Part shown: piece by piece, positions 1-16,533 of the stretch
Numbering within the stretch: the first letter of the stretch is position 1
Layout: each line of letters opens with the position of its first letter
Virus record (IMG/VR): IMGVR_UViG_2802429225_000004
Length of the DNA: 44,726 nt
Source: a virus
Taxonomy: Duplodnaviria > Heunggongvirae > Uroviricota > Caudoviricetes
Reading direction: 5' to 3' (one strand)
Translations under genes and position numbers: made by a program
Notes under the pieces: model-generated
The model's database searches: none
Told to the model about the DNA's origin: nothing
Seen by the model: the letters and a program-made list of their open reading frames with translations, nothing else

Positions 1-1131
1 TCAAATAACCAGTTTTTTCCACTCCTTACCGCGTGCGTCGTTGTAAATATCGGTCATTTTTTGATTCGAATGACCCAGCAAAATTTTGGTATCAATTCCC
101 TGTTCTCTGAACAATCTTTCTGATAAAGATCTTTGCTCATGGAAAGAGGGTGGAGTGCCATTAGCACGCCAGTTGTAATCCACAGAATCCCGGGCTTTTT
201 TAAATGCAACTGTTAACGTTGCTGGTTTAACCATCCCGCCGCGCTTACCCATCCCCTTAGCGTGATGATGGTGCAATAACCACGGACTAAGGATGTAATC
301 ACGACAGGATGACACCACGTCACCTAGGGTCAGATTTAATTTGTCGCAACGCAGAGCCAGAGGAATGGCTATCCGGGCTCCTGTTTTTTGCTGTTCGACA
401 TGAAGGTAACCATCCCGGATATCCGAAAACTGCATTTTGCAAATATCCGAAAGACGCTGGCCCGTCATCAGTGCCAGCAGCATGCCGCGCTGTAAAAAGT
501 AACCATCCTTTTCCGCTGCGTTATAAATCATCATCCACTCATCAAAAGTCAGTCGCTGTCTTGATATCCGCACTTGCGGTTTTTTTGCCGATTCAGCCGG
601 GTTAAAGCCTGGCGGGACATCACCCGTTTGTTGAGCCTCCCGGAAAACATCGATCAATACCTTCCTGAAAATTTGTCCCATTCTGTTATGTCCCTTTGCC
701 TTGTATTCTTCCAGCACCGATACCACATCTTTTACGGTTATGGCATCTAGCGGCCTGGCTCCAAAACGTTCATCAAACACCCTGAGAGGAGCCGCTTTTT
801 GTTTCAGCGTGCTGAGCTTGATTTCTCCGTTCTCATATCTTTCCTGTTGAATTTTTCTGTAATTATTCAGAAAAATGGAAACGGTTGATGCGCCGCCGGT
901 ATCACTAATAATTTTCTCCTGCAGACTGAGCATTTGCTCCATTTGTTGTCTGGCAAGACGGCTGTTCGCTTCTGCTGCAATGGTTTCCGCCAGTTTCTGG
1001 TCAATACTGCCGAGTCCATGATTTTTACCTGTGATGGGATGCCTGTAACGCCAGTAAACTTTGTTATTTCTTTTGTCAAAATACGGAGATAAACCCGGAA
1101 CATCGGTTTTATATTTTCGCGGGCGCGCCAT
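1..1131 (-). CDS. int: Phage integrase, tyrosine recombinase (lambda Int family); stop codon is the first codon of the window
   Basis: 376-aa ORF; C-terminal catalytic-domain motifs typical of tyrosine recombinases (HxxR...Y region, LLGHSNQKMTDIY); position at prophage end next to xis. Confidence 0.9.
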   Translation of the reverse strand: MARPRKYKTDVPGLSPYFDKRNNKVYWRYRHPITGKNHGLGSIDQKLAETIAAEANSRLARQQMEQMLSLQEKIISDTGGASTVSIFLNNYRKIQQERYENGEIKLSTLKQKAAPLRVFDERFGARPLDAITVKDVVSVLEEYKAKGHNRMGQIFRKVLIDVFREAQQTGDVPPGFNPAESAKKPQVRISRQRLTFDEWMMIYNAAEKDGYFLQRGMLLALMTGQRLSDICKMQFSDIRDGYLHVEQQKTGARIAIPLALRCDKLNLTLGDVVSSCRDYILSPWLLHHHHAKGMGKRGGMVKPATLTVAFKKARDSVDYNWRANGTPPSFHEQRSLSERLFREQGIDTKILLGHSNQKMTDIYNDARGKEWKKLVI

Positions 1132-1357
1132 CTTCCAGTATCCTCTTCAAAGCAGGGTGATCTGTGGCGATCACCTCAGGCTTGTTTACCATTCCGACAA
1201 AGCGAGCGCGTGGATCCACTCGCCAGTGCCTTCCTACTTTTTTGGGGAGAGGAAATATCATTCCGGCTTTAGCGTATTTACTTAACGTACCCGGAGTAGG
1301 GACCGGTTCACTGAATTCCTCTTTTGCCCACTCAGTGAGCAGAATAAGTCTTGCCAT
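1109..1357 (-). CDS. Excisionase-like small DNA-binding protein
   Basis: 82-aa ORF overlapping int start by 23 nt; basic winged-helix-like sequence; synteny directly upstream of int. Confidence 0.6.
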   Translation of the reverse strand: MARLILLTEWAKEEFSEPVPTPGTLSKYAKAGMIFPLPKKVGRHWRVDPRARFVGMVNKPEVIATDHPALKRILEDGAPAKI

Positions 1358-1421: not shown

Positions 1422-3896
1422 TTAAAAATCAGCCTGATTCGGGATCAGTTTTTGCCAGATTGCTGAAACGTATTTCGCCTGGTGACGGGCATCATCCAGC
1501 GCATGGTGGCGCACGCCTTCAAATGGAATAACTGTTCTGGCATCGAAGTCGATAGTTTTTCCCAGTTCAACGATTGTACGTACATCGCGATCGTTGTAGT
1601 AACGCCACGGGCAGGGGATGTTCAGGCGTTCGTACGAGGTTCGTAAAATAGTGTTGTCGAAAGTTGCACCATTGCCCCATACCTGAACGAATTTTTCATT
1701 CGAGTACTCATTGATGAATTCCCGAAATTGAATAAGAGCGTCAACCAGTTTTACCTGATCAACTAAAATTGCAGATCTGGCTTCGCTGGACTGAGCAAGC
1801 CACCATTCGATGGTGGAACCATCAGGTACAGCACCCGTGTCCATAGCGTCAACCAGGCTGATAACGATATAAAATGTTGGCCCGATTTCCCCGGTCTGCG
1901 GATCGAAGAACACAGCACCAATAACCACGATGGGGGCATTACTTTTTTTACCCATCGTTTCAAGGTCGATCATCAGGTGGTACCACACTCTGCTGGTGGA
2001 TGTGCTTTTATGATGACCATTCACATTAATTAAGGGATCTGCCGCCTCACCAGTTTCACTATCGCTGGCGTGGTCCTGAGCGCCGCTAGTGTCCCCCTTG
2101 TGTGGATGTTCAGCGCCTTCCATTTCCTCCGGATCATTTTCCTGAACTTCAACCTGATTCTCTTCATCGAATGTTTCCTGATATGTTGCGTTGCCCATCA
2201 CCGCGCCACAATCAGGGCAGTTGCCGCCACCGCTCTGACCGCAGGCGGTGCAGGTTTTTTCTGGTTCTTGTTGCGCTACTGGTTCGGATTGTTTCGTTTC
2301 TGGCTCGTTTTGTAACGCATTTTGGCTGTTTTGTTCCGCTTTCTGGTCGTTCTGTTCCGTTTCTTGCTGGTTCTGGTACACAGAATCGCGGGTTTCAATC
2401 CCCTTCACCCATTTCGGATCATTCGGGTCGCTAATCCCTGCAACAAATTCTCCGCGAGAGGCAGCAAGCAACTGATTGGCGTCAGGCTGGCTGACTGCCT
2501 GCATAATTTTGTTTACTTCGTCAGCGGTAACTTTTACCGGCTCTGGTTGTGCGGTCGTGTCAGATGCACCAGTATTTTGTTGTGAACCTGAGTATGTGCC
2601 GTTTTTGCGGGCAAAATATTCTTCTTTCGTGATTTCAGTAGCCCCGGCAGCCAGCGCCTTATTCAGACCAGAAAGTTTGTTTGCACGACCATATTTTTCG
2701 CCATCCTTATCGGTGAAGAGGAAGTAGAACGGCCCCTCACGCTCTACAGATGGTTCAGTTTCCAGCGCGCTTTCATTTTTTTTGGTATCAGATACTTCAG
2801 TTTCCACTGCATCAGTTTGTGCTGCTGACGGCTGGAGAATATCAGCAGTGTTCTGGTCTGTTTCTTCATCCTCAAACACGCCCTTTGTCGCCAGGTATTC
2901 AGTGATGTATTTGTTCAGTGCCACGGGATCCTTGTGAATGTCGATCGGACGCTCACGGACAAGGCCAAAAATAGTCTGACGGTCATAGCGAATGGCATCA
3001 GGCTGTTTGCGCATTGATGCGGAAATACGCTTCCAGTCTTCGCGATCGCTCTCGATAACTTCATTTTTTGCCCAGCGATGGATGCTGCCGTCAATGTTTC
3101 CGGCATCAATGTCACCAGGCCACAGAGCGTAGGCCAGTTCATCATCCAATGTTTTCCATGTCTGCTTGTATTCGCGACGAATAACTGCAGTGACAGGGGG
3201 GATTTTTTCTGCTGAGTTTTCAGTGTGCTGTCGGTTGACTCTGGTGCGGGCGAGATCAACAACAGACGTGTATTTTCCAGTCTCTTTGCGCTCCGCGTCC
3301 TGCCGTTTTTTCCAGTTACGTAATTCAGCCTGAATTTCGGGCCATTTGGCACCCGGCTTACATTTGTGTTTACCCCATCCGATAGCGAACAGTTTGCGTT
3401 CCGGATACATAGCGTTAATTTCTGGTGTTTTCATCAGTGCTTCAACGATATGCCCGTCGAATGTCGCCACGTCTTCCTGCAGTAACTCCTGTGCGCTAAT
3501 CACCATATCAACGGTGATGTTTTCACATGTACCGAACTTAACCAGGACCGCGTTCTGTACTTCAAGGGACAGCTTGTCAAAATTGACGTTCATCGGATCG
3601 GATTCTGGTTCGACCGGAATAAAGGAAGCGGATTCCTCATCCCAGCGGTTTTCCTGCATATATTCGGTATCCCAGGAGTCGATAGCAGGGCGGGGCATGC
3701 CGGGTTTATCCTCGCAGACAAGAAATTTATAAGCGCAGTCCTGAGCAGCCGGATATTGCTCCAGGAATTGCCAGGTAAATTTGGCACGGGCGCGGCGTTC
3801 GTCACCGGCTTCAATGGCAGTGGCTACAGCAACTGCACCTTCTTCCTTTATTGCCTGTTCGTCCGGAATGGCGGCGCAAATAAAGACTTTACTCAT
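1422..3896 (-). CDS. Large prophage exonuclease with C-terminal DnaQ-like DEDDh 3'-5' exonuclease domain (family often annotated exodeoxyribonuclease VIII in enterobacterial prophages)
   Basis: 824-aa ORF; C-terminal motifs MIDLETMG, WGNGATFDN, HHALDDA match DEDDh exonuclease Exo I/II/III; long acidic Q/E-rich low-complexity middle region with CxxC...CxxC zinc-ribbon-like motif. Confidence 0.75.
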   Translation of the reverse strand: MSKVFICAAIPDEQAIKEEGAVAVATAIEAGDERRARAKFTWQFLEQYPAAQDCAYKFLVCEDKPGMPRPAIDSWDTEYMQENRWDEESASFIPVEPESDPMNVNFDKLSLEVQNAVLVKFGTCENITVDMVISAQELLQEDVATFDGHIVEALMKTPEINAMYPERKLFAIGWGKHKCKPGAKWPEIQAELRNWKKRQDAERKETGKYTSVVDLARTRVNRQHTENSAEKIPPVTAVIRREYKQTWKTLDDELAYALWPGDIDAGNIDGSIHRWAKNEVIESDREDWKRISASMRKQPDAIRYDRQTIFGLVRERPIDIHKDPVALNKYITEYLATKGVFEDEETDQNTADILQPSAAQTDAVETEVSDTKKNESALETEPSVEREGPFYFLFTDKDGEKYGRANKLSGLNKALAAGATEITKEEYFARKNGTYSGSQQNTGASDTTAQPEPVKVTADEVNKIMQAVSQPDANQLLAASRGEFVAGISDPNDPKWVKGIETRDSVYQNQQETEQNDQKAEQNSQNALQNEPETKQSEPVAQQEPEKTCTACGQSGGGNCPDCGAVMGNATYQETFDEENQVEVQENDPEEMEGAEHPHKGDTSGAQDHASDSETGEAADPLINVNGHHKSTSTSRVWYHLMIDLETMGKKSNAPIVVIGAVFFDPQTGEIGPTFYIVISLVDAMDTGAVPDGSTIEWWLAQSSEARSAILVDQVKLVDALIQFREFINEYSNEKFVQVWGNGATFDNTILRTSYERLNIPCPWRYYNDRDVRTIVELGKTIDFDARTVIPFEGVRHHALDDARHQAKYVSAIWQKLIPNQADF

Positions 3897-3976: not shown

Positions 3977-4180
3977 TTACGGTGCTGCTTTAAGTCCTGC
4001 CGGGATTTCGTTATTGTCCATGCGAATAACTTTATCAACCGGATAACAGTTGCCGGGAATTTTCTGTTCCGCTGCGGCAGCCATGCATTCTTTCATTGAG
4101 TCATGTATACCAATAACAAGATCGACTGGTTCGCCTGTATTAAGAAAAACTGTCAGAACGAGTGCAAATGCTGTATTCAT
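3977..4180 (-). CDS. ydfD: YdfD-like small secreted/lysis protein (DUF1482-type)
   Basis: Internal Met start MNTAFALVLTVFL... gives about 67 aa with N-terminal hydrophobic segment; resembles remembered Qin prophage YdfD; directly downstream of dicB-like gene as in the dicB operon. Confidence 0.5.
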   Translation of the reverse strand: MNTAFALVLTVFLNTGEPVDLVIGIHDSMKECMAAAAEQKIPGNCYPVDKVIRMDNNEIPAGLKAAP

Positions 4181-4182
4181 TG

Positions 4183-4365
4183 TCAGCGTCCTTTTTGCAT
4201 CAGGCGTAAACGGGCCAGCATTGAAACAATGCATATTTGATTTAATAGCTCCCGTTCGTGTTTTCTCTTATTAATGGCATCTTCAGTAAATACAGGGTTA
4301 CTGATTCTGACACCAATTTCAAAACAACCTTCAGACGTATTGACGTTTGGTAATAACGTTTCCAT
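4183..4365 (-). CDS. dicB: DicB-like cell-division inhibitor
   Basis: 60-aa product METLLPNVNTSEGCFEIGV...SMLARLRLM closely resembles remembered E. coli DicB; GAGGA RBS upstream; follows DicF-like terminator hairpin. Confidence 0.6.
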   Translation of the reverse strand: METLLPNVNTSEGCFEIGVRISNPVFTEDAINKRKHERELLNQICIVSMLARLRLMQKGR

Positions 4366-4548
4366 TATCGCGTCCTCAACAATGAATTTTGTGATGCGGT
4401 GCCTGGTGCCTCCAGGTGACGTTAACCAGTTAATAATTAACGCCGGATACAGAGAACCCACCCATAAGAACCAATACGGAAGTCAACTGGCCTTTTTAAC
4501 TGTTCCGCGTGCGCTGAGCCGCATTCACCGCATCACAAAATTCACTTT

Positions 4549-4932: not shown

Positions 4933-5142
4933 ATGCCAAACAGACCAATACATCCGCTTATTGAAAAACAGATTGAATGTCTGGTTAATCAACTCAGGCA
5001 ATCAGGGTTATTAAAAAACCATTCAGAGTTAAGGCTCACGAAATCAGCATTTGACGATAAATTAAACAATGTGCTTTATAATGGCATCATTGATTACAAT
5101 CGTGGTGTTGGTCGTCGTGGCCCTGCTGGCACCGCCCTGTAA
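4933..5142 (+). CDS. Hypothetical 69-aa protein, antisense-oriented to the surrounding minus-strand operon
   Basis: ATG preceded by GGAGGA; stop abuts the convergent stop of the 212-aa minus-strand gene; no recognisable domain. Confidence 0.3.
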   Translation: MPNRPIHPLIEKQIECLVNQLRQSGLLKNHSELRLTKSAFDDKLNNVLYNGIIDYNRGVGRRGPAGTAL

Positions 5143-5781
5143 TTACCAGTCAATCCAGAGCGGATAGTGTTCAGCGTAAATATAGCTGTATACATCAAGG
5201 TTGTATTTGTGGTCTGCTTTTAACAGGTCACAAATACATGTTGCTGCTTCCAGGGCTGAAGCTCTGTTACTGAACATCCACGTCGCAACATTCCAGCTAT
5301 TCTCTGTATCCCATTCTTTCGCAAGAGTTGACACTCTGAAGGATCCGTTGGCGTTGCCATCAAATACTTCTGTTTCCAGGTTCTTAAGCAATGCCTGATG
5401 AACTTTTGTCAGGTATTCAGCCGGAATCTTGCCACGGATTCTGATGAGATTGTCATAAACAAACATATTTCCCGCGTATGGCGATTTTTCTTTCTTGTTT
5501 TTTAAACCAGCATCATGAGCAAACTGATCAATTTCTTCTTTCATTGGTTTCGTATTGATGTTTTGCGCTGTCGTTTCTGCAATTTTCTTTGCCACACTCT
5601 CTGAGTCGTGTTTATTTACAGACGAACAGAAATACAATCCGGTAAACGCATCGCGCACATTACGAGCCATATTATCAATGTCTTTCTTCGTTGCAGATTC
5701 TAATTCAACTTCGGACAGACGTTGACAAAGTGCATGCGCTGCAATCACCTTGATTTCTTTTGGTAACTCTTTAAATTCCAT
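5143..5781 (-). CDS. Hypothetical 212-aa protein in the ydfC slot of the dicB-type operon
   Basis: Long ORF, AT-rich relative to neighbours, tightly packed behind YdfB-like ORF; no motif recognised by eye. Confidence 0.6.
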   Translation of the reverse strand: MEFKELPKEIKVIAAHALCQRLSEVELESATKKDIDNMARNVRDAFTGLYFCSSVNKHDSESVAKKIAETTAQNINTKPMKEEIDQFAHDAGLKNKKEKSPYAGNMFVYDNLIRIRGKIPAEYLTKVHQALLKNLETEVFDGNANGSFRVSTLAKEWDTENSWNVATWMFSNRASALEAATCICDLLKADHKYNLDVYSYIYAEHYPLWIDW

Positions 5782-5792
5782 CTATAACCCCG

Positions 5793-5921
5793 TTAGTCGA
5801 TAGATTTTGCCGAACTGTAAAGCGCCTGTTTAAACTCACTGAAGCTGAGAGCTTCTTCGCCTTCGGCAAGGCCTTCGAAGTATTCTTCGTAAGCCTTTTC
5901 CATGATTGTGTCGAAATCCAT
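5793..5921 (-). CDS. ydfB: YdfB-like 42-aa acidic protein
   Basis: 42-codon ORF MDFDTIMEKAYEEYFEGLAEGEE... placed 1 nt after YdfA-like stop; below the 60-aa ORF-track cutoff, translated manually. Confidence 0.4.
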   Translation of the reverse strand: MDFDTIMEKAYEEYFEGLAEGEEALSFSEFKQALYSSAKSID

Positions 5922-5922
5922 A

Positions 5923-6078
5923 TCACTCACCTGAGTTTCTTTCCAGCCAGCGACGGGCACCATTTTCGGTTTTAAACATTTTGCTTTTGGTATACGTCAT
6001 CGCGGTGAACGTGCCGTCCTGGTTGGGAAACACGCCGTACACCAGAGATTCGTTGTTGCCAAGATCGATAGTATCCAT
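5923..6078 (-). CDS. ydfA: YdfA-like small protein (DUF1391-type)
   Basis: Internal Met start MDTIDLGNNESLVYGVFPNQDGTF... (51 aa) with GAGG RBS; first gene after the palindromic operator/promoter. Confidence 0.5.
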   Translation of the reverse strand: MDTIDLGNNESLVYGVFPNQDGTFTAMTYTKSKMFKTENGARRWLERNSGE

Positions 6079-6260
6079 GTTGACCTCATTTCCCCTTAAC
6101 GCCGGGGTAGCGGAACAAAAACCTGCTGCATAGTTAAAGTTGAACCCTGCCGTCATGTTCTTACGCCTCGGGCTGGCTACTTAACCCCTGACCACTGCCT
6201 GGTAACTCGAAGTATTGCCCTGCATTCTGTGGGGCGGGGTGGGTTGGTAAAAATAATCTA

Positions 6261-6297
6261 CAATTAAAAACTGTTTTGTGTCAACAGTTTTTAATTG
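6261..6297. promoter_or_regulatory. Perfect 15-bp inverted repeat operator (CAATTAAAAACTGTT-N7-AACAGTTTTTAATTG) in the promoter region of the dicB-type operon
   Basis: Read directly from sequence; related half-sites AAAACTGT/ACAGTTTT recur in the repressor/cro divergent region. Confidence 0.5.
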
Positions 6298-6304
6298 TTG
6301 TCTT

Positions 6305-6334
6305 AGACAAAAAAACTCCCTCGAATGAGGGAGT
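6305..6334 (-). terminator. Rho-independent terminator ending the repressor-antitoxin-toxin operon
   Basis: Hairpin ACTCCCTC-GAAT-GAGGGAGT followed on the minus strand by T-tract; 17 nt after the ParE-like stop. Confidence 0.55.
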
Positions 6335-6350
6335 ATGGAAATTGTTCGGC

Positions 6351-6638
6351 TCAGATAGAGAAGGGAAATTGTCGACGGGCATGCACAATATTCGCAATTT
6401 CAATGCTTGAAGTTGCTACTCGGTACAACACGATATAATTAGGGTGAACCACAAGTTCCCGCAAACCGGATACTCGATCACTTAGCGGATATAGATATGG
6501 GTGCTCAGAGAGGGTTAAAACAGACGTTTCAATACGTATTTTTAGTCTGCGTGCTGCAGGAATGTTTTCCTTAGCAATATAGGTTACGACCTGACGCAAA
6601 TCATCGCGAGCAGATGGTAGCCATAAAATGGGTAACAT
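6351..6638 (-). CDS. RelE/ParE-family toxin (ParE2-like)
   Basis: 95-aa ORF with conserved RelE/ParE core pattern (...YIVLYRV...IEIANIVHARR); start overlaps stop of upstream small antitoxin ORF. Confidence 0.6.
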   Translation of the reverse strand: MLPILWLPSARDDLRQVVTYIAKENIPAARRLKIRIETSVLTLSEHPYLYPLSDRVSGLRELVVHPNYIVLYRVATSSIEIANIVHARRQFPFSI

Positions 6639-6829
6639 TACTCGCTCCTGTTAGTTGCAGCAATTTGAGCAATAAGATTTTCCATTTCAGCCATTACCTC
6701 GTCATGTGGAATTGCGGGGCGAGGGTCTGCAAGGCTTAACGTCACTTTAGCGCGCAACCATTCGTTGTAACTGTTTTCTTGTTCGGTAGTTTCGAATTCT
6801 GAAACTATCGGAGAAAGGGCTGTACTCAT
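6638..6829 (-). CDS. Small antitoxin (PaaA2-like) paired with ParE-family toxin
   Basis: 63-aa acidic ORF directly upstream of and overlapping the toxin gene; size and position match the PaaR2-PaaA2-ParE2 arrangement of O157 prophages. Confidence 0.5.
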   Translation of the reverse strand: MSTALSPIVSEFETTEQENSYNEWLRAKVTLSLADPRPAIPHDEVMAEMENLIAQIAATNRSE

Positions 6830-6856
6830 GGCATAACTCCTCTTCTTGTACAGTGG

Positions 6857-7258
6857 TCACGCCCGGCGGCTTTTTTGTGCCGCCAACCATCGGGCAATAG
6901 TTTCTTCCATTGATTTTTTCTTGTCTTTGATTTCTTGAAGCATTTTTTCTTGGTCTTCCTCTGGAAACGCACTAAAAGCTTGGAGCAGTTCGCGTTGGCG
7001 AGGACCAATTTTCATTGTGTCAGGGGTGAAAATTTGCTCCCCCTCATCAGGAGGCAATAAAAACCAATGCAATGGATGCCCTGTAACCTCAACCAGTTTA
7101 TCCAAACTTGAGGCTTTAGGCGTAGCCTTACCGCTGACCCATTGTTGAACTGTTTGTTGTGTCACACCAATTCTACGGGCAAGTTCAGCCTGGCTCCATC
7201 CAGTTTCCTGAAGAAGCTTGCTGATTCTGTACATAGATACTTCTAGGGCGTTCATCAT
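6857..7258 (-). CDS. HTH_XRE repressor (cI/DicA/PaaR2-like), probable prophage immunity repressor
   Basis: 133-aa ORF with HTH ISKLLQETGWSQAELARRIGVTQQTVQQW; divergent from cro-like gene; palindromic operators nearby. Confidence 0.75.
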   Translation of the reverse strand: MMNALEVSMYRISKLLQETGWSQAELARRIGVTQQTVQQWVSGKATPKASSLDKLVEVTGHPLHWFLLPPDEGEQIFTPDTMKIGPRQRELLQAFSAFPEEDQEKMLQEIKDKKKSMEETIARWLAAQKSRRA

Positions 7259-7366
7259 TATTCAATTTTACAGGTAAATACTGTTAAAAGCATCACAATA
7301 AAAAACTGTTGATTGCGTACAGTTTTTTATTGTAGGCTTTGTTTATAGTTTTCAGAGGAGGGCAAA
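7259..7366. promoter_or_regulatory. Divergent repressor/cro promoter-operator region
   Basis: Intergenic region between divergent HTH genes containing AAAAACTGTTGATTGCGTACAGTTTTTT inverted repeat similar to the 6261-6297 operator. Confidence 0.5.
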
Positions 7367-11665: not shown

Positions 11666-11949
11666 GATGGCTTTTGTGGACAAAGACGGCATCGAAGTAG
11701 AGAGCTCAACTCACTGGATGCCGCTACCGGAACCACCGCAGGAGGTGAATCAATGACCTGGCCTGAGGCATTCACCACGGTAGGAATTGCACTGGCGGTG
11801 GCGCTGGTGGTGTATTCGATTTGCCGCTGGGGATAAAAACGATTTGCGGGAAAAGGATAGTTAAGTAGAATGGCTGCGGGTGCTTGAGGCTATCTGTCTC
11901 AGGCATGAACACCAACGGCAGATAGAGAAAAGCCCCAGTTAACATTACG

Positions 11950-12020
11950 CGTCCTGCAAGACGCTTAACATTAATCTGAGGCCATATCTATGACTTGCAC
12001 ACGTAGGTTAGCCTCTTACG
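11950..12020 (-). ncRNA. Putative Sok-type antisense RNA region of the hok locus
   Basis: Inferred from the canonical hok/mok/sok organisation only; boundaries not resolvable from sequence. Confidence 0.25.
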
Positions 12021-12046
12021 TGCCGAAAGGCAAGGAGAAGCAGGCT

Positions 12047-12202
12047 ATGAAGCAGCAAAAGGCGATGTTAATCGCCCTGATCGTCATCTGTTTAACCGTC
12101 ATAGTGACGGCACTGGTAACGAGGAAAGACCTCTGCGAGGTACGAATCCGAACCGGCCAGACGGAGGTCGCTGTCTTCACAGCTTACGAACCTGAGGAGT
12201 AA
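12047..12202 (+). CDS. hok: Hok-family type I toxin (HokD/RelF-like); overlapping mok frame begins at 11990
   Basis: 51-aa product MKQQKAMLIALIVICLTVIVTALVTRKDLCEVRIRTGQTEVAVFTAYEPEE is a hallmark Hok sequence; upstream overlapping reading frame as in mok. Confidence 0.85.
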   Translation: MKQQKAMLIALIVICLTVIVTALVTRKDLCEVRIRTGQTEVAVFTAYEPEE

Positions 12203-12430: not shown

Positions 12431-12679
12431 ATGAGCAAAAAAGAGAAGTTGAGGTGGCGTCTGAATCAGCTTCCAAAGGATTTTACATGGGATGAACTCG
12501 TGACGTTGCTTGGGCATTATGGTTTCGAAATGCTTACCGGTTCAGGCTCAAGAAGGAAGTTTACCAATGCTAATGGAAGGCTTGTGGCTTTTCATTGCCC
12601 ACATCCTGGCAATATTGTTAAAGGATATGTGCTTAAAGAAGTGAAAAATCTTTTGGATGAGATTGATAGTTATGAGTAA
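12431..12679 (+). CDS. hicA: HicA-family toxin (YcfA-like mRNA interferase)
   Basis: Pattern GSGSRRKF...GRLVAFHCPHPGNIVKGYVLKEVKNLL matches HicA/YcfA family. Confidence 0.7.
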   Translation: MSKKEKLRWRLNQLPKDFTWDELVTLLGHYGFEMLTGSGSRRKFTNANGRLVAFHCPHPGNIVKGYVLKEVKNLLDEIDSYE

Positions 12680-13148
12680 TGTGCTGAGTTATAAAGGTTA
12701 TTTTGGCAGCATTGAGGTTTCACTTGAAGATAACATACTTCATGGGAAAATTCAGTGCGTAAACGATGTTGTAACCTACGAAGCGGAAACACTGGATGGG
12801 TTAAGGGCGGCTTTTGAAGAAGCTGTTACAGATTATCTCGACACATGCAAGCAGTTAGGGAAATCTCCTGATAAACCAATGAGTGGTACTTTTAACATCA
12901 GAATTGGTCGCGATCTTCATAAGAAAGCGTTTTTGGCTGCAATGGCGGATAAGACGACGCTTAATGATTATGTGCGTAAAGCTATCGAAGAAAAGATTGC
13001 TGACAAAAAAGAAGTTCATTCTCATTCGGAAAGCGAAGAAACGACAGATACATTCGTTTGGGAAAAAGCATTCTCTTTTGGTTATGTCATTTCCCCTTCA
13101 GCAAGAACAAAAAAGAAAGAGGCTGGTGAGCGATGGATGCGTCACTGA
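12672..13148 (+). CDS. hicB: HicB-family antitoxin with about 50-aa C-terminal extension
   Basis: N-terminal HicB-like fold segment plus ribbon-helix-helix-like GTFNIRIGRDLHKKAFLAAMADKTTLNDYVRKAIEEKI; start overlaps hicA stop (ATGAGTAA). Confidence 0.65.
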   Translation: MSNVLSYKGYFGSIEVSLEDNILHGKIQCVNDVVTYEAETLDGLRAAFEEAVTDYLDTCKQLGKSPDKPMSGTFNIRIGRDLHKKAFLAAMADKTTLNDYVRKAIEEKIADKKEVHSHSESEETTDTFVWEKAFSFGYVISPSARTKKKEAGERWMRH

Positions 13149-13940: not shown

Positions 13941-14996
13941 GTGAGGGTATTAGTGACTCCTGAAATTGCTCACCGCCTGGGGATTGTACTTTTCAGGCCC
14001 GGTCCTGATGCGATGCCTTTGTTTATGCAGGGGCGTGTGCTGGTGGAGCCTGAACCGAAAAGCATGCGCGGGCTGCCGTCCGGAGTTGCTCCTGCCGTTC
14101 GCCAGCCGTTGGCGGAGGATAAATCATTACTGCCATTTTTCAGCGATGAGCGGGTGATTCGTGCTGCCGGCGGCGCTGGTGCACTGTCTGACTGGCTCCT
14201 GCGTCATGTTAAATCCTGCCAGTGGCCTCATGGTGACTACCATCACAGCGAAACCGTCATACATCGTTACGGTACCGGCGCGATGGTGTTGTGCTGGCAC
14301 TGCGACAACCAACTGCGTGACCAGACCTCAGAATCACTTGAGCAACTTGCTCAACAAAACCTGACAGCATGGATGATTGACGTCATCCGTCACGCAATAA
14401 GCGGTGCGCAGGAGCGGGAATTATCGCTGGCTGAATTATCTTGGTGGGCGGTCTGCAATCAGGTGGCGGACGCACTACCGGAGGCAGTATTACGTCGCTC
14501 TCTGGGGGTACGAGAGGAAAAAATCCGCTCTGTGTACCGCGAAAGCGACATCATACCGGGAGAACAGACCGCCACCAGTATACTGAAGCAGCGTACAAAA
14601 AATATTGCGCTACCGCCTCACGTCCACCAGCACCAGCAACAGAACCCACCACAGGAAAAGACAGTGGTCAGCATTGCCGTTGATCCGGAGTCTCCGGAAT
14701 CTTTCATGAAACGACCTAAACGTCGCCGCTGGGTTAACGAGAAATACACGCGCTGGGTAAAGACACAGCCGTGCGCGTGTTGTGGTAAGCCAGCCGACGA
14801 TCCCCATCACCTGATTGGTCATGGTCAGGGCGGAATGGGAACAAAATCCCACGATATTTTCACACTACCGCTGTGTCGGGAGCATCACAACGAGCTTCAT
14901 GCGGATCCGCTGGCGTTCGAAGAAAAGCATGGTTCCCAGGTTGATTTAATTTTTCGTTTTCTTGATCACGCCTTTGCAACCGGCGTGCTCGGGTAA
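13941..14996 (+). CDS. DUF968-family protein (YdfU-like) with Cys/His-rich C-terminal putative metal-binding nuclease-like region
   Basis: 351-aa ORF; C-terminal CACCGK...DDPHHLIGHGQGGMGTK...LCREHHNELH; nin-region synteny before rusA. Confidence 0.55.
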   Translation: MRVLVTPEIAHRLGIVLFRPGPDAMPLFMQGRVLVEPEPKSMRGLPSGVAPAVRQPLAEDKSLLPFFSDERVIRAAGGAGALSDWLLRHVKSCQWPHGDYHHSETVIHRYGTGAMVLCWHCDNQLRDQTSESLEQLAQQNLTAWMIDVIRHAISGAQERELSLAELSWWAVCNQVADALPEAVLRRSLGVREEKIRSVYRESDIIPGEQTATSILKQRTKNIALPPHVHQHQQQNPPQEKTVVSIAVDPESPESFMKRPKRRRWVNEKYTRWVKTQPCACCGKPADDPHHLIGHGQGGMGTKSHDIFTLPLCREHHNELHADPLAFEEKHGSQVDLIFRFLDHAFATGVLG

Positions 14997-16379: not shown

Positions 16380-16455
<76 letters not shown>

Positions 16456-16458
16456 TAT

Positions 16459-16533
<75 letters not shown>

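Follow-up and report, generated by a model that had tools for sequence, protein, structure and literature searches.

The protein of 824 amino acids (aa) encoded at positions 1422-3896 on the minus strand of the Caudoviricetes record IMGVR_UViG_2802429225_000004 (44,726 nucleotides, in the following the window) is, as judged from its sequence, a RecE-type scaffold in which the PD-(D/E)XK nuclease domain has been exchanged for a DEDDh exonuclease domain, with the junction at aa 623. As a YdfE/RecE-scaffold protein of the lambdoid early-left operon with the DEDDh domain in place of the RecE nuclease, it is probably an accessory processor of DNA ends and not a SynExo recombinase, a reading which we favour with moderate confidence. 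The gene as such is ordinary and very common among lambdoid prophages, and represents in intact form what is ydfE in Escherichia coli K-12. Its open reading frame (ORF), which the first-pass annotation of this DNA had already delimited, runs in the ORF list without interruption across 824 codons from an ATG start and is of unremarkable base composition. An identical NCBI entry bears the name 'exonuclease', phrog_2082 ('exonuclease') aligns with the protein from end to end, and the Pfam content on record for exactly this protein is YdfE_N (PF27430), YdfE_C (PF27432) and the Rv2179c-like domain. The gene and its parts are as follows.

1422..3896, minus strand: whole ORF, YdfE/RecE-scaffold protein with C-terminal DEDDh exonuclease (ORF list; 824 aa plus stop)
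3597..3896, minus strand: head domain 1, aa 1-100, small alpha/beta, part of YdfE_N
3219..3584, minus strand: head domain 2, aa 105-226, helical, part of YdfE_N (AlphaFold2 helices 111-226)
2862..3191, minus strand: conserved helical module, aa 236-345 (jackhmmer, AlphaFold2, BLASTP against RecE)
2592..2744, minus strand: small conserved island FYFLFTDKDGEKYGRANKLSGLNKALAAGATEITKEEYFARKNG, aa 385-435, inside the acidic linkers (phmmer)
2028..2471, minus strand: segment aa 476-623 with DNA-level homology to Rac recE (blastn)
2208..2252, minus strand: C4 zinc ribbon CTAC-x7-CPDC, aa 549-563, kept in Rac RecE as CNAC-x7-CPDC
1455..1979, minus strand: DEDDh 3'-5' exonuclease domain, aa 640-814 (Pfam PF16473; catalytic D644, E646, D747, H797 and D802)

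The relationship to RecE (exodeoxyribonuclease VIII, b1350) of the K-12 Rac prophage is evident on the protein and on the DNA level. By BLASTP, aa 262-623 of the window protein correspond to RecE aa 278-591 (E 5e-60), a region which spans the zinc ribbon and the acidic tail, and the helical module aa 236-345 matches RecE aa 253-359. The NCBIfam exoVIII equivalog NF007259 reaches 266 bits against a cutoff of 1269, i.e. it stays below the full-length threshold, its match being limited to aa 245-623 against profile positions 270-602 of 877. By blastn, window positions 2029-2471 are 75% identical to Rac recE, the homology ending exactly at aa 623, and the shared 'linker' (aa 476-623 against RecE aa 458-591) shows 67% aa identity with a ratio of nonsynonymous to synonymous substitution rates (dN/dS) of 0.28, which equals purifying selection. 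For the PD-(D/E)XK (DUF3799-type) nuclease domain, in turn, no match was obtained by Pfam, by BLASTP to RecE aa 600-866 or by tblastn in the window. Since the homology of aa 262-623 to Rac RecE lies in the part of the latter outside the nuclease, the protein is a RecE relative with a swapped nuclease. A RecE-type PD-(D/E)XK domain and a cryptic annealase gene nearby had been named beforehand as findings that would refute the first-pass reading, and neither was found by Pfam, BLASTP, tblastn or phmmer.

In common with Rac RecE are thus the helical module, the C4 zinc ribbon and the acidic tail, besides a similar length and the same prophage position in the early-left operon near xis and int. 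Both ends of the proteins differ, however: Rac RecE starts with the N-terminal Exonuc_VIII domain (PF06630), which is absent from the Pfam matches of the window protein with its YdfE_N-type head, and carries a PD-(D/E)XK nuclease of 5'-3' polarity at the place of the DEDDh nuclease, of predicted 3'-5' polarity, in the window protein. Furthermore, recT follows Rac recE, while none follows the window gene.

The N-terminal 625 aa are a member of the YdfE_N/YdfE_C family and not anonymous sequence. The description of the ~600 aa in front of the nuclease as low-complexity sequence rich in E, Q and D, given in the first-pass annotation, has to be revised, as the entropy amounts to 3.4-4.0 bits per 50-aa block with solely block 501-550 being clearly Q/E-rich, and acidic or Q-rich stretches are limited to linkers (roughly aa 346-384, 436-470, 500-548 and 566-625). 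An AlphaFold2 model of aa 1-350, which rests on a 30-sequence alignment, predicts three folded units at a mean predicted local distance difference test (pLDDT) value of 88, an alpha/beta unit (aa 1 to about 100), a helical unit (about 105-226) and a second helical unit (about 245-340), with the module aa 236-345 reaching a pLDDT of about 90-96. In comparisons with three homologues, dN/dS came to 0.09-0.25 for the folded domains, which are thus under purifying selection, and to 0.28-0.51 for the linkers, so that no segment comes near 1. Within the linker region, phmmer with aa 385-500 recovered the segment in most family members regardless of the nuclease type. The CxxC...CxxC motif noted in the same annotation is indeed present, as the zinc-ribbon cysteines C549/C552 and C560/C563.

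The single strong Pfam match of the window protein is PF16473 (Rv2179c-like 3'-5' exoribonuclease), which covers aa 640-814 with profile positions 2-177 of 177 (E 1.1e-68, 230.8 bits against a cutoff of 27). The closest solved structure by sequence is PDB 8kel (227 aa, 'Exodeoxyribonuclease', E 1.4e-9), which from its sequence we take to be DexA of phage T4. When T4 DexA and four members of the family are aligned with the window protein, D644/E646, D747 and H797/D802 fall on DexA D7/E9, the FD motif and H186/D191, such that the Exo I (DxE), Exo II (D) and Exo III (Hx4D) residues are all present and the C-terminal DEDDh (DnaQ-like) motifs recognized at first pass are substantiated. The domain is predicted to be a metal-dependent 3'-5' exonuclease, with the polarity that of the family. 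T4 DexA (PDB 8kel/8ken) belongs to the same DEDDh fold family, PF16473, and has the five catalytic residues in common with the window domain at ~29% identity across roughly 140 aa, but is a stand-alone protein of 227 aa with extra loops, whereas the window domain is fused to the 625-aa scaffold. Closer in sequence are Sb30 of Salmonella phage ST64B and similar phage DEDDh exonucleases with 65% identity to window aa 640-819; these, too, are stand-alone proteins, of ~180 aa and without the RecE/YdfE scaffold.

The Pfam name '3'-5' exoribonuclease Rv2179c-like', the frequent designation as '3'-5' exoribonuclease' by the Prokaryotic Genome Annotation Pipeline (PGAP) and weaker matches of the domain to RNase_T and oligoribonuclease would agree with an RNA substrate, the enzyme then being a 3'-5' exoribonuclease like Rv2179c which trims or degrades transcripts or small RNAs in phage development. 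As a DNA exonuclease ranks first among the solved structures when compared by sequence (E 1e-9 versus 0.023 for oligoribonuclease), and the DEDDh domain sits where the RecE scaffold has a DNA exonuclease, we regard RNA as quite an unlikely substrate.

Homology to T4 DexA can also be taken to indicate a superinfection-exclusion or defence nuclease which, like EcD (HREX), degrades the 5-hydroxymethylcytosine (5hmC) DNA of incoming T-even phages and thereby protects the lysogen. In favour of such a function, EcD, a plasmid-borne DexA homologue of E. coli, is reported to cut T4 DNA and to give protection against this phage (PMC12153337), and genes adjacent to int often benefit the lysogen. EcD, which was compared through its primer-encoded termini only (a scan of genome contigs with the primers gave chance matches in unrelated bacteria), begins according to its cloning primers at the same MID-x-ET motif and has the same 75-residue spacing between the catalytic Asp and the position of DexA D90 as the window protein. 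However, the loss that defines EcD, the change of D90, the tetramer-forming Asp of DexA, to Ala, is not matched in the window protein, where D719 is kept, with DexA S87 corresponding to K716. The DexA residues W152 and D169, proposed for 5hmC recognition, align with Y767 and A786 in a poorly aligned loop and may not be conserved. As inferred from its primers, EcD is moreover a short stand-alone protein with another C-terminus (...TIPETY), and the window protein a fusion of 824 aa. Directly upstream of the exonuclease gene no promoter-like site was found on its strand, which makes expression in a repressed lysogen doubtful, and PADLOC gave a weak generic DEDDh match (E 7e-4) with no membership in a defence system. 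Taken together, a defence function is unlikely.

ORF list and Pfam matches of the neighbours agree with the placement of the gene between xis and the dicB operon in the first-pass annotation.

1109..1357, minus strand: excisionase (xis), directly downstream of the exonuclease gene, after a 64-bp gap with no recT inside
1..1131, minus strand: integrase (int), downstream beyond xis (ORF list)
3977..4180, minus strand: DUF1482 (ydfD-like) gene, directly upstream (Pfam PF07358, E 1e-22)
4183..4365, minus strand: dicB, upstream in the same leftward gene string (Pfam PF05358, E 7e-37)

Pfam analysis of 20 early-region ORFs of the window revealed no annealase, lambda-type exonuclease or convincing RecBCD inhibitor. 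Likewise, no RecT, Bet, Erf or Rad52-like gene was detected in the six frames of the window by tblastn and phmmer with a panel of two RecT proteins, lambda Bet, P22 Erf, lambda Exo, Gam, P22 Abc2, the RecE nuclease domain and a Rad52-like C-terminus, so that the RecT/Bet/Erf-type partner reported missing between xis and dicB was found nowhere in the window. The panel also produced a weak lambda-Gam-like tblastn match of 37 aa at 14676-14786 on the minus strand (E 0.001), antisense to a DUF968 gene, which was judged spurious. An early-left ORF of 212 aa at 5143-5781 on the minus strand, conserved in related prophages, was considered as a hidden annealase and rejected, as it has no Pfam match, belongs to phrog_2151 of unknown function and is unlike the annealase panel.

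Related loci show the same picture. No annealase was found in phages Evi and Tritos, in E. coli RM10740, in a Rac-like prophage (L005, encoding the relative P0131) and in two metagenomic loci (L008/L009, encoding P0140). IMG/VR was scanned with aa 466-625 and with the RecE nuclease domain as queries, and the best 80 loci of each scan were inspected. In the first set 79 loci encode the DEDDh form, none of these 79 with an annealase, at least 900 bp of downstream sequence being available in 73; in the second set, recT begins at the end of recE in 80/80, including the one locus in which the PD-(D/E)XK type has a YdfE_N head. Likewise, a RecT-family gene (PF03837, E 2e-36) comes after the gene of P0130, a YdfE-headed PD-(D/E)XK protein. 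The PD-(D/E)XK versions thus come with recT and the DEDDh versions without annealase, a strong association. With respect to SynExo systems, neither an adjacent annealase (in the window and the 79 loci) nor a 5'-3' nuclease of the lambda-Exo/RecE PD-(D/E)XK type was found, the sole nuclease domain being DEDDh. Lacking both a PD-(D/E)XK domain and an annealase, the gene is not part of a canonical exonuclease-annealase pair, as had been proposed.

A recombination exonuclease could still work with an annealase in cis, hidden in its N-terminal part, or in trans, together with host RecA or the RecT or Bet protein of co-resident prophages. The scaffold is common with RecE, some scaffold relatives carry a Rad52-like motif C-terminally, and with a median of two and up to ten gene copies per E. 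coli genome, partners in trans would be available. Yet the N-terminal model bears no resemblance to the RecT, Redbeta, Rad52 or Erf folds, the 79 related loci are without annealase, and a 3'-5' polarity is the wrong one for making annealase substrates, as established for SynExo systems (PMC11611040). Such an arrangement is therefore considered very unlikely.

The scaffold itself occurs in a family which is narrow, as an exhaustive search with aa 1-630 recovered only 251 representatives at 50% identity. Common to all members including K-12 RecE is the helical module of ~105 residues, which jackhmmer with aa 236-345 recovered in 59 representatives and K-12 RecE. This core is combined with two alternative N-terminal heads, the YdfE_N type and the RecE Exonuc_VIII type, and three alternative C-terminal ends, DEDDh, RecE-type PD-(D/E)XK and a third domain (phrog_7838). 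Among the 50%-identity representatives both head types pair with both nuclease types, and each was also seen with the third domain. Examples are P0131 from the Rac-like prophage, which consists of Exonuc_VIII and DEDDh, and P0130, which consists of YdfE_N/YdfE_C and DUF3799.

The third domain, ~270 aa long and of neither nuclease type, terminates the YdfE scaffold in P0129 (L007, positions 5001-7337), P0133, P0134, P0163 and P0180. It bears the Rad52-like motif GEAQKKSLTDAxKKALSLLGFSADVWLGLYD and matches Pfam Rad52_Rad22 with E 0.0038, below the cutoff, and P0129-type genes have a Gam-like gene and Sipho_Gp157 as neighbours. These relatives could be scaffold-annealase fusions and may be the 'RecE-2' proteins lacking a nuclease domain of PMC12315714.

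Chi sites (GCTGGTGG) are enriched in this DNA. The window holds 10 of them, 8 on the plus strand, where 2.0 +/- 1.3 are expected and 0/100 shuffles reach 10.

1394, 1992, 11803, 14039, 17724, 17836, 22827 and 44362, plus strand: Chi sites
14624 and 42716, minus strand: Chi sites

A survey of lambdoid recombination modules lists in its Table 1 a 'Tritos' type with a nuclease, no annealase, single-stranded DNA-binding protein (SSB) or anti-RecBCD gene and many Chi sites, numbering 21/6 to 7/2 across the class, and proposes that the recombination-dependent growth of Chi-rich lambdoids without a Rec module relies on host RecBCD (Zheng et al., Genome Res 2025; PMC12315714). DnaQ-like 3'-5' nucleases were found there in lambdoid Rec modules, with the remark that such exonucleases usually inhibit homologous recombination, while DnaQ-type genes near int were generally left out of the modules (PMC12315714). 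The window combines all traits of the 'Tritos' type, a nuclease, no annealase, SSB or anti-RecBCD gene and abundant, strand-biased Chi sites, and does not essentially differ from its members, the host in this case being an Escherichia of the cryptic clades or E. marmotae-like. A homologue with 81% identity is encoded by phage Tritos itself (OV696610.1), where the order of the genes (dicB, ydfD, exo, xis, int) is that of the window; DicF, which is annotated at the equivalent place in Tritos, gave no match in the window. The core observation of the first-pass annotation is in this sense already on record as a class, and new here are the homology to the RecE scaffold, the nuclease-swap junction, the link to ydfE and the association of nuclease type with recT.

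For the window protein, a role can be envisaged in which the enzyme, expressed together with the leftward early operon after induction, would remove nucleotides from DNA 3' ends in a Mg2+-dependent manner, and the common scaffold would bring it to the partner or substrate of RecE, probably DNA ends. Single-strand annealing of the SynExo kind would not be served by it, because a 3'-5' exonuclease destroys the 3' tails that an annealase requires. Accessory end processing would be more likely, in a phage which depends on host RecBCD, Chi and RecA. For instance, 3' tails may be trimmed so that the ends become RecBCD substrates, or host or competing DNA may be degraded.

Several points weigh against the interpretation as an accessory DNA-end processor. 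The Pfam family is named for an exoribonuclease, Rv2179c of M. tuberculosis, which makes an RNA substrate possible. The best 80 loci of each IMG/VR scan are close relatives and not independent events, such that the association with recT, although strong, is not counted in separate origins. No biochemical or genetic study of the window protein or of any full-length homologue was found in the literature, and the idea of end trimming for RecBCD is speculation based on general knowledge of E. coli 3'-5' exonucleases and on the Chi enrichment.

More far-reaching, and rather improbable, is a scenario in which the RecE/YdfE scaffold is a general platform that delivers interchangeable DNA-end-processing heads to one target, with the DEDDh version as a pro-RecBCD factor. 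Three heads would be available to it, an exonuclease of 5'-3' polarity that cooperates with RecT, the DEDDh exonuclease of 3'-5' polarity and a Rad52-like annealase in fused form, and by the DEDDh head 3'-tailed phage ends would be trimmed blunt for RecBCD loading. Such a function would account for the occurrence of the DEDDh form in Chi-rich genomes without annealase or RecBCD inhibitor.

Alternatively, as the first-pass annotation had suggested, the protein might be an anti-defence or host-takeover nuclease, which degrades the multicopy single-stranded DNA (msDNA) of retrons or other defence DNA or scavenges host DNA for nucleotides. That the gene belongs to the early operon is in line with this alternative. 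Temperate lambdoid phages, however, are not known to degrade the host chromosome, and the strict exchange of nuclease and recT on a recombination scaffold points to the phage's own DNA-end metabolism. Support comes from T4 DexA, to which a function in the scavenging of host DNA is ascribed (PMC12153337). In vivo, retron msDNA is a substrate that Rac RecE degrades (bioRxiv 10.1101/2020.06.22.160242), and RecE-scaffold nucleases can therefore meet such substrates; in the retron case, though, RecE sets off the defence and does not block it. We give this alternative little credence compared with accessory processing of DNA ends.

Megablast detected a match to the gene in 4800/5426 complete E. coli genomes (about 88%), in 3457 of them with at least 80% gene coverage, at a median of two and a maximum of ten places per genome, which makes it one of the commonest prophage genes of the species, often in multiple copies. 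Full-length homologues of 81-86% identity are encoded in the phage records Evi, mEp460_ev081, Tritos, HannyBb and PhiR42_1 and in PPompW prophages of enterohaemorrhagic E. coli (EHEC), and carriers include both EHEC PPompW and Shiga toxin (Stx)-phage-associated prophages. Besides '3'-5' exoribonuclease', PGAP names the protein 'exonuclease' or '3'-5' exonuclease', while phage records often mislabel it 'exodeoxyribonuclease VIII'. YdfE of the K-12 Qin prophage is of the same YdfE_N/YdfE_C family and has the same neighbourhood (dicB, ydfD/DUF1482, the gene, int), but is shortened by insertion sequence IS2 with nothing left past about aa 256, the window gene representing the full-length form. As E. 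coli K-12 (W3110) matches nucleotides 1-767 of the gene at 86% identity up to IS2, K-12 ydfE is a truncated copy, and its retained stretch ends just past head domain 2. The truncation of K-12 ydfE and the many copies in defective prophages might suggest a decaying, functionless relic of a cryptic prophage; with the frame intact here and in thousands of genomes, dN/dS well below 1 and presence in isolated, viable phages such as Tritos, the reading as a pseudogene was rejected and is extremely improbable. Compared with E. coli RM10740 the gene is a mosaic, aa 1-100 being 96% identical (synonymous divergence dS 0.12) and aa 101-230 (3207-3596) 62% identical (dS 1.2), a contrast which indicates recombination within the exonuclease gene.

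Apart from the exonuclease gene, some features of the window are worth mentioning. Upstream of dicB, positions 4388-4542 on the minus strand match the small RNA family STnc100 below threshold (33.5 bits against 47) and share 80% identity with the sequence that precedes kilR in Rac and bears the annotation of kilS. At 6255-6334 on the minus strand, a near-consensus promoter-like TTGACA-18-TAGATT overlaps a 16-bp inverted repeat, with a strong terminator-like hairpin and T-run just upstream on the same strand; the leftward operon may be regulated at this site. A ParE toxin/PaaA2 antitoxin pair (6351-6829, minus strand) adjoins the repressor gene. The early-right/late-regulatory region contains, all on the plus strand, a sok antitoxin RNA (11878-12052, 109.5 bits), a HicB-family gene (12657-13148) and two tRNA genes (16380-16530).

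None of the findings is very surprising on its own, and a modest interest attaches to the scaffold. According to a review of recombineering proteins, no function is known for the N-terminal region of RecE, even though linear-linear recombination benefits from the full-length protein (PMC11611040). Viewing the window protein as a RecE-scaffold protein corrects the frequent label 'exodeoxyribonuclease VIII' and explains the orphan ydfE of K-12. It further provides a handle on two questions, the role of the N-terminal 600 residues of RecE and the use of host RecBCD by recombinase-less, Chi-rich lambdoid phages.

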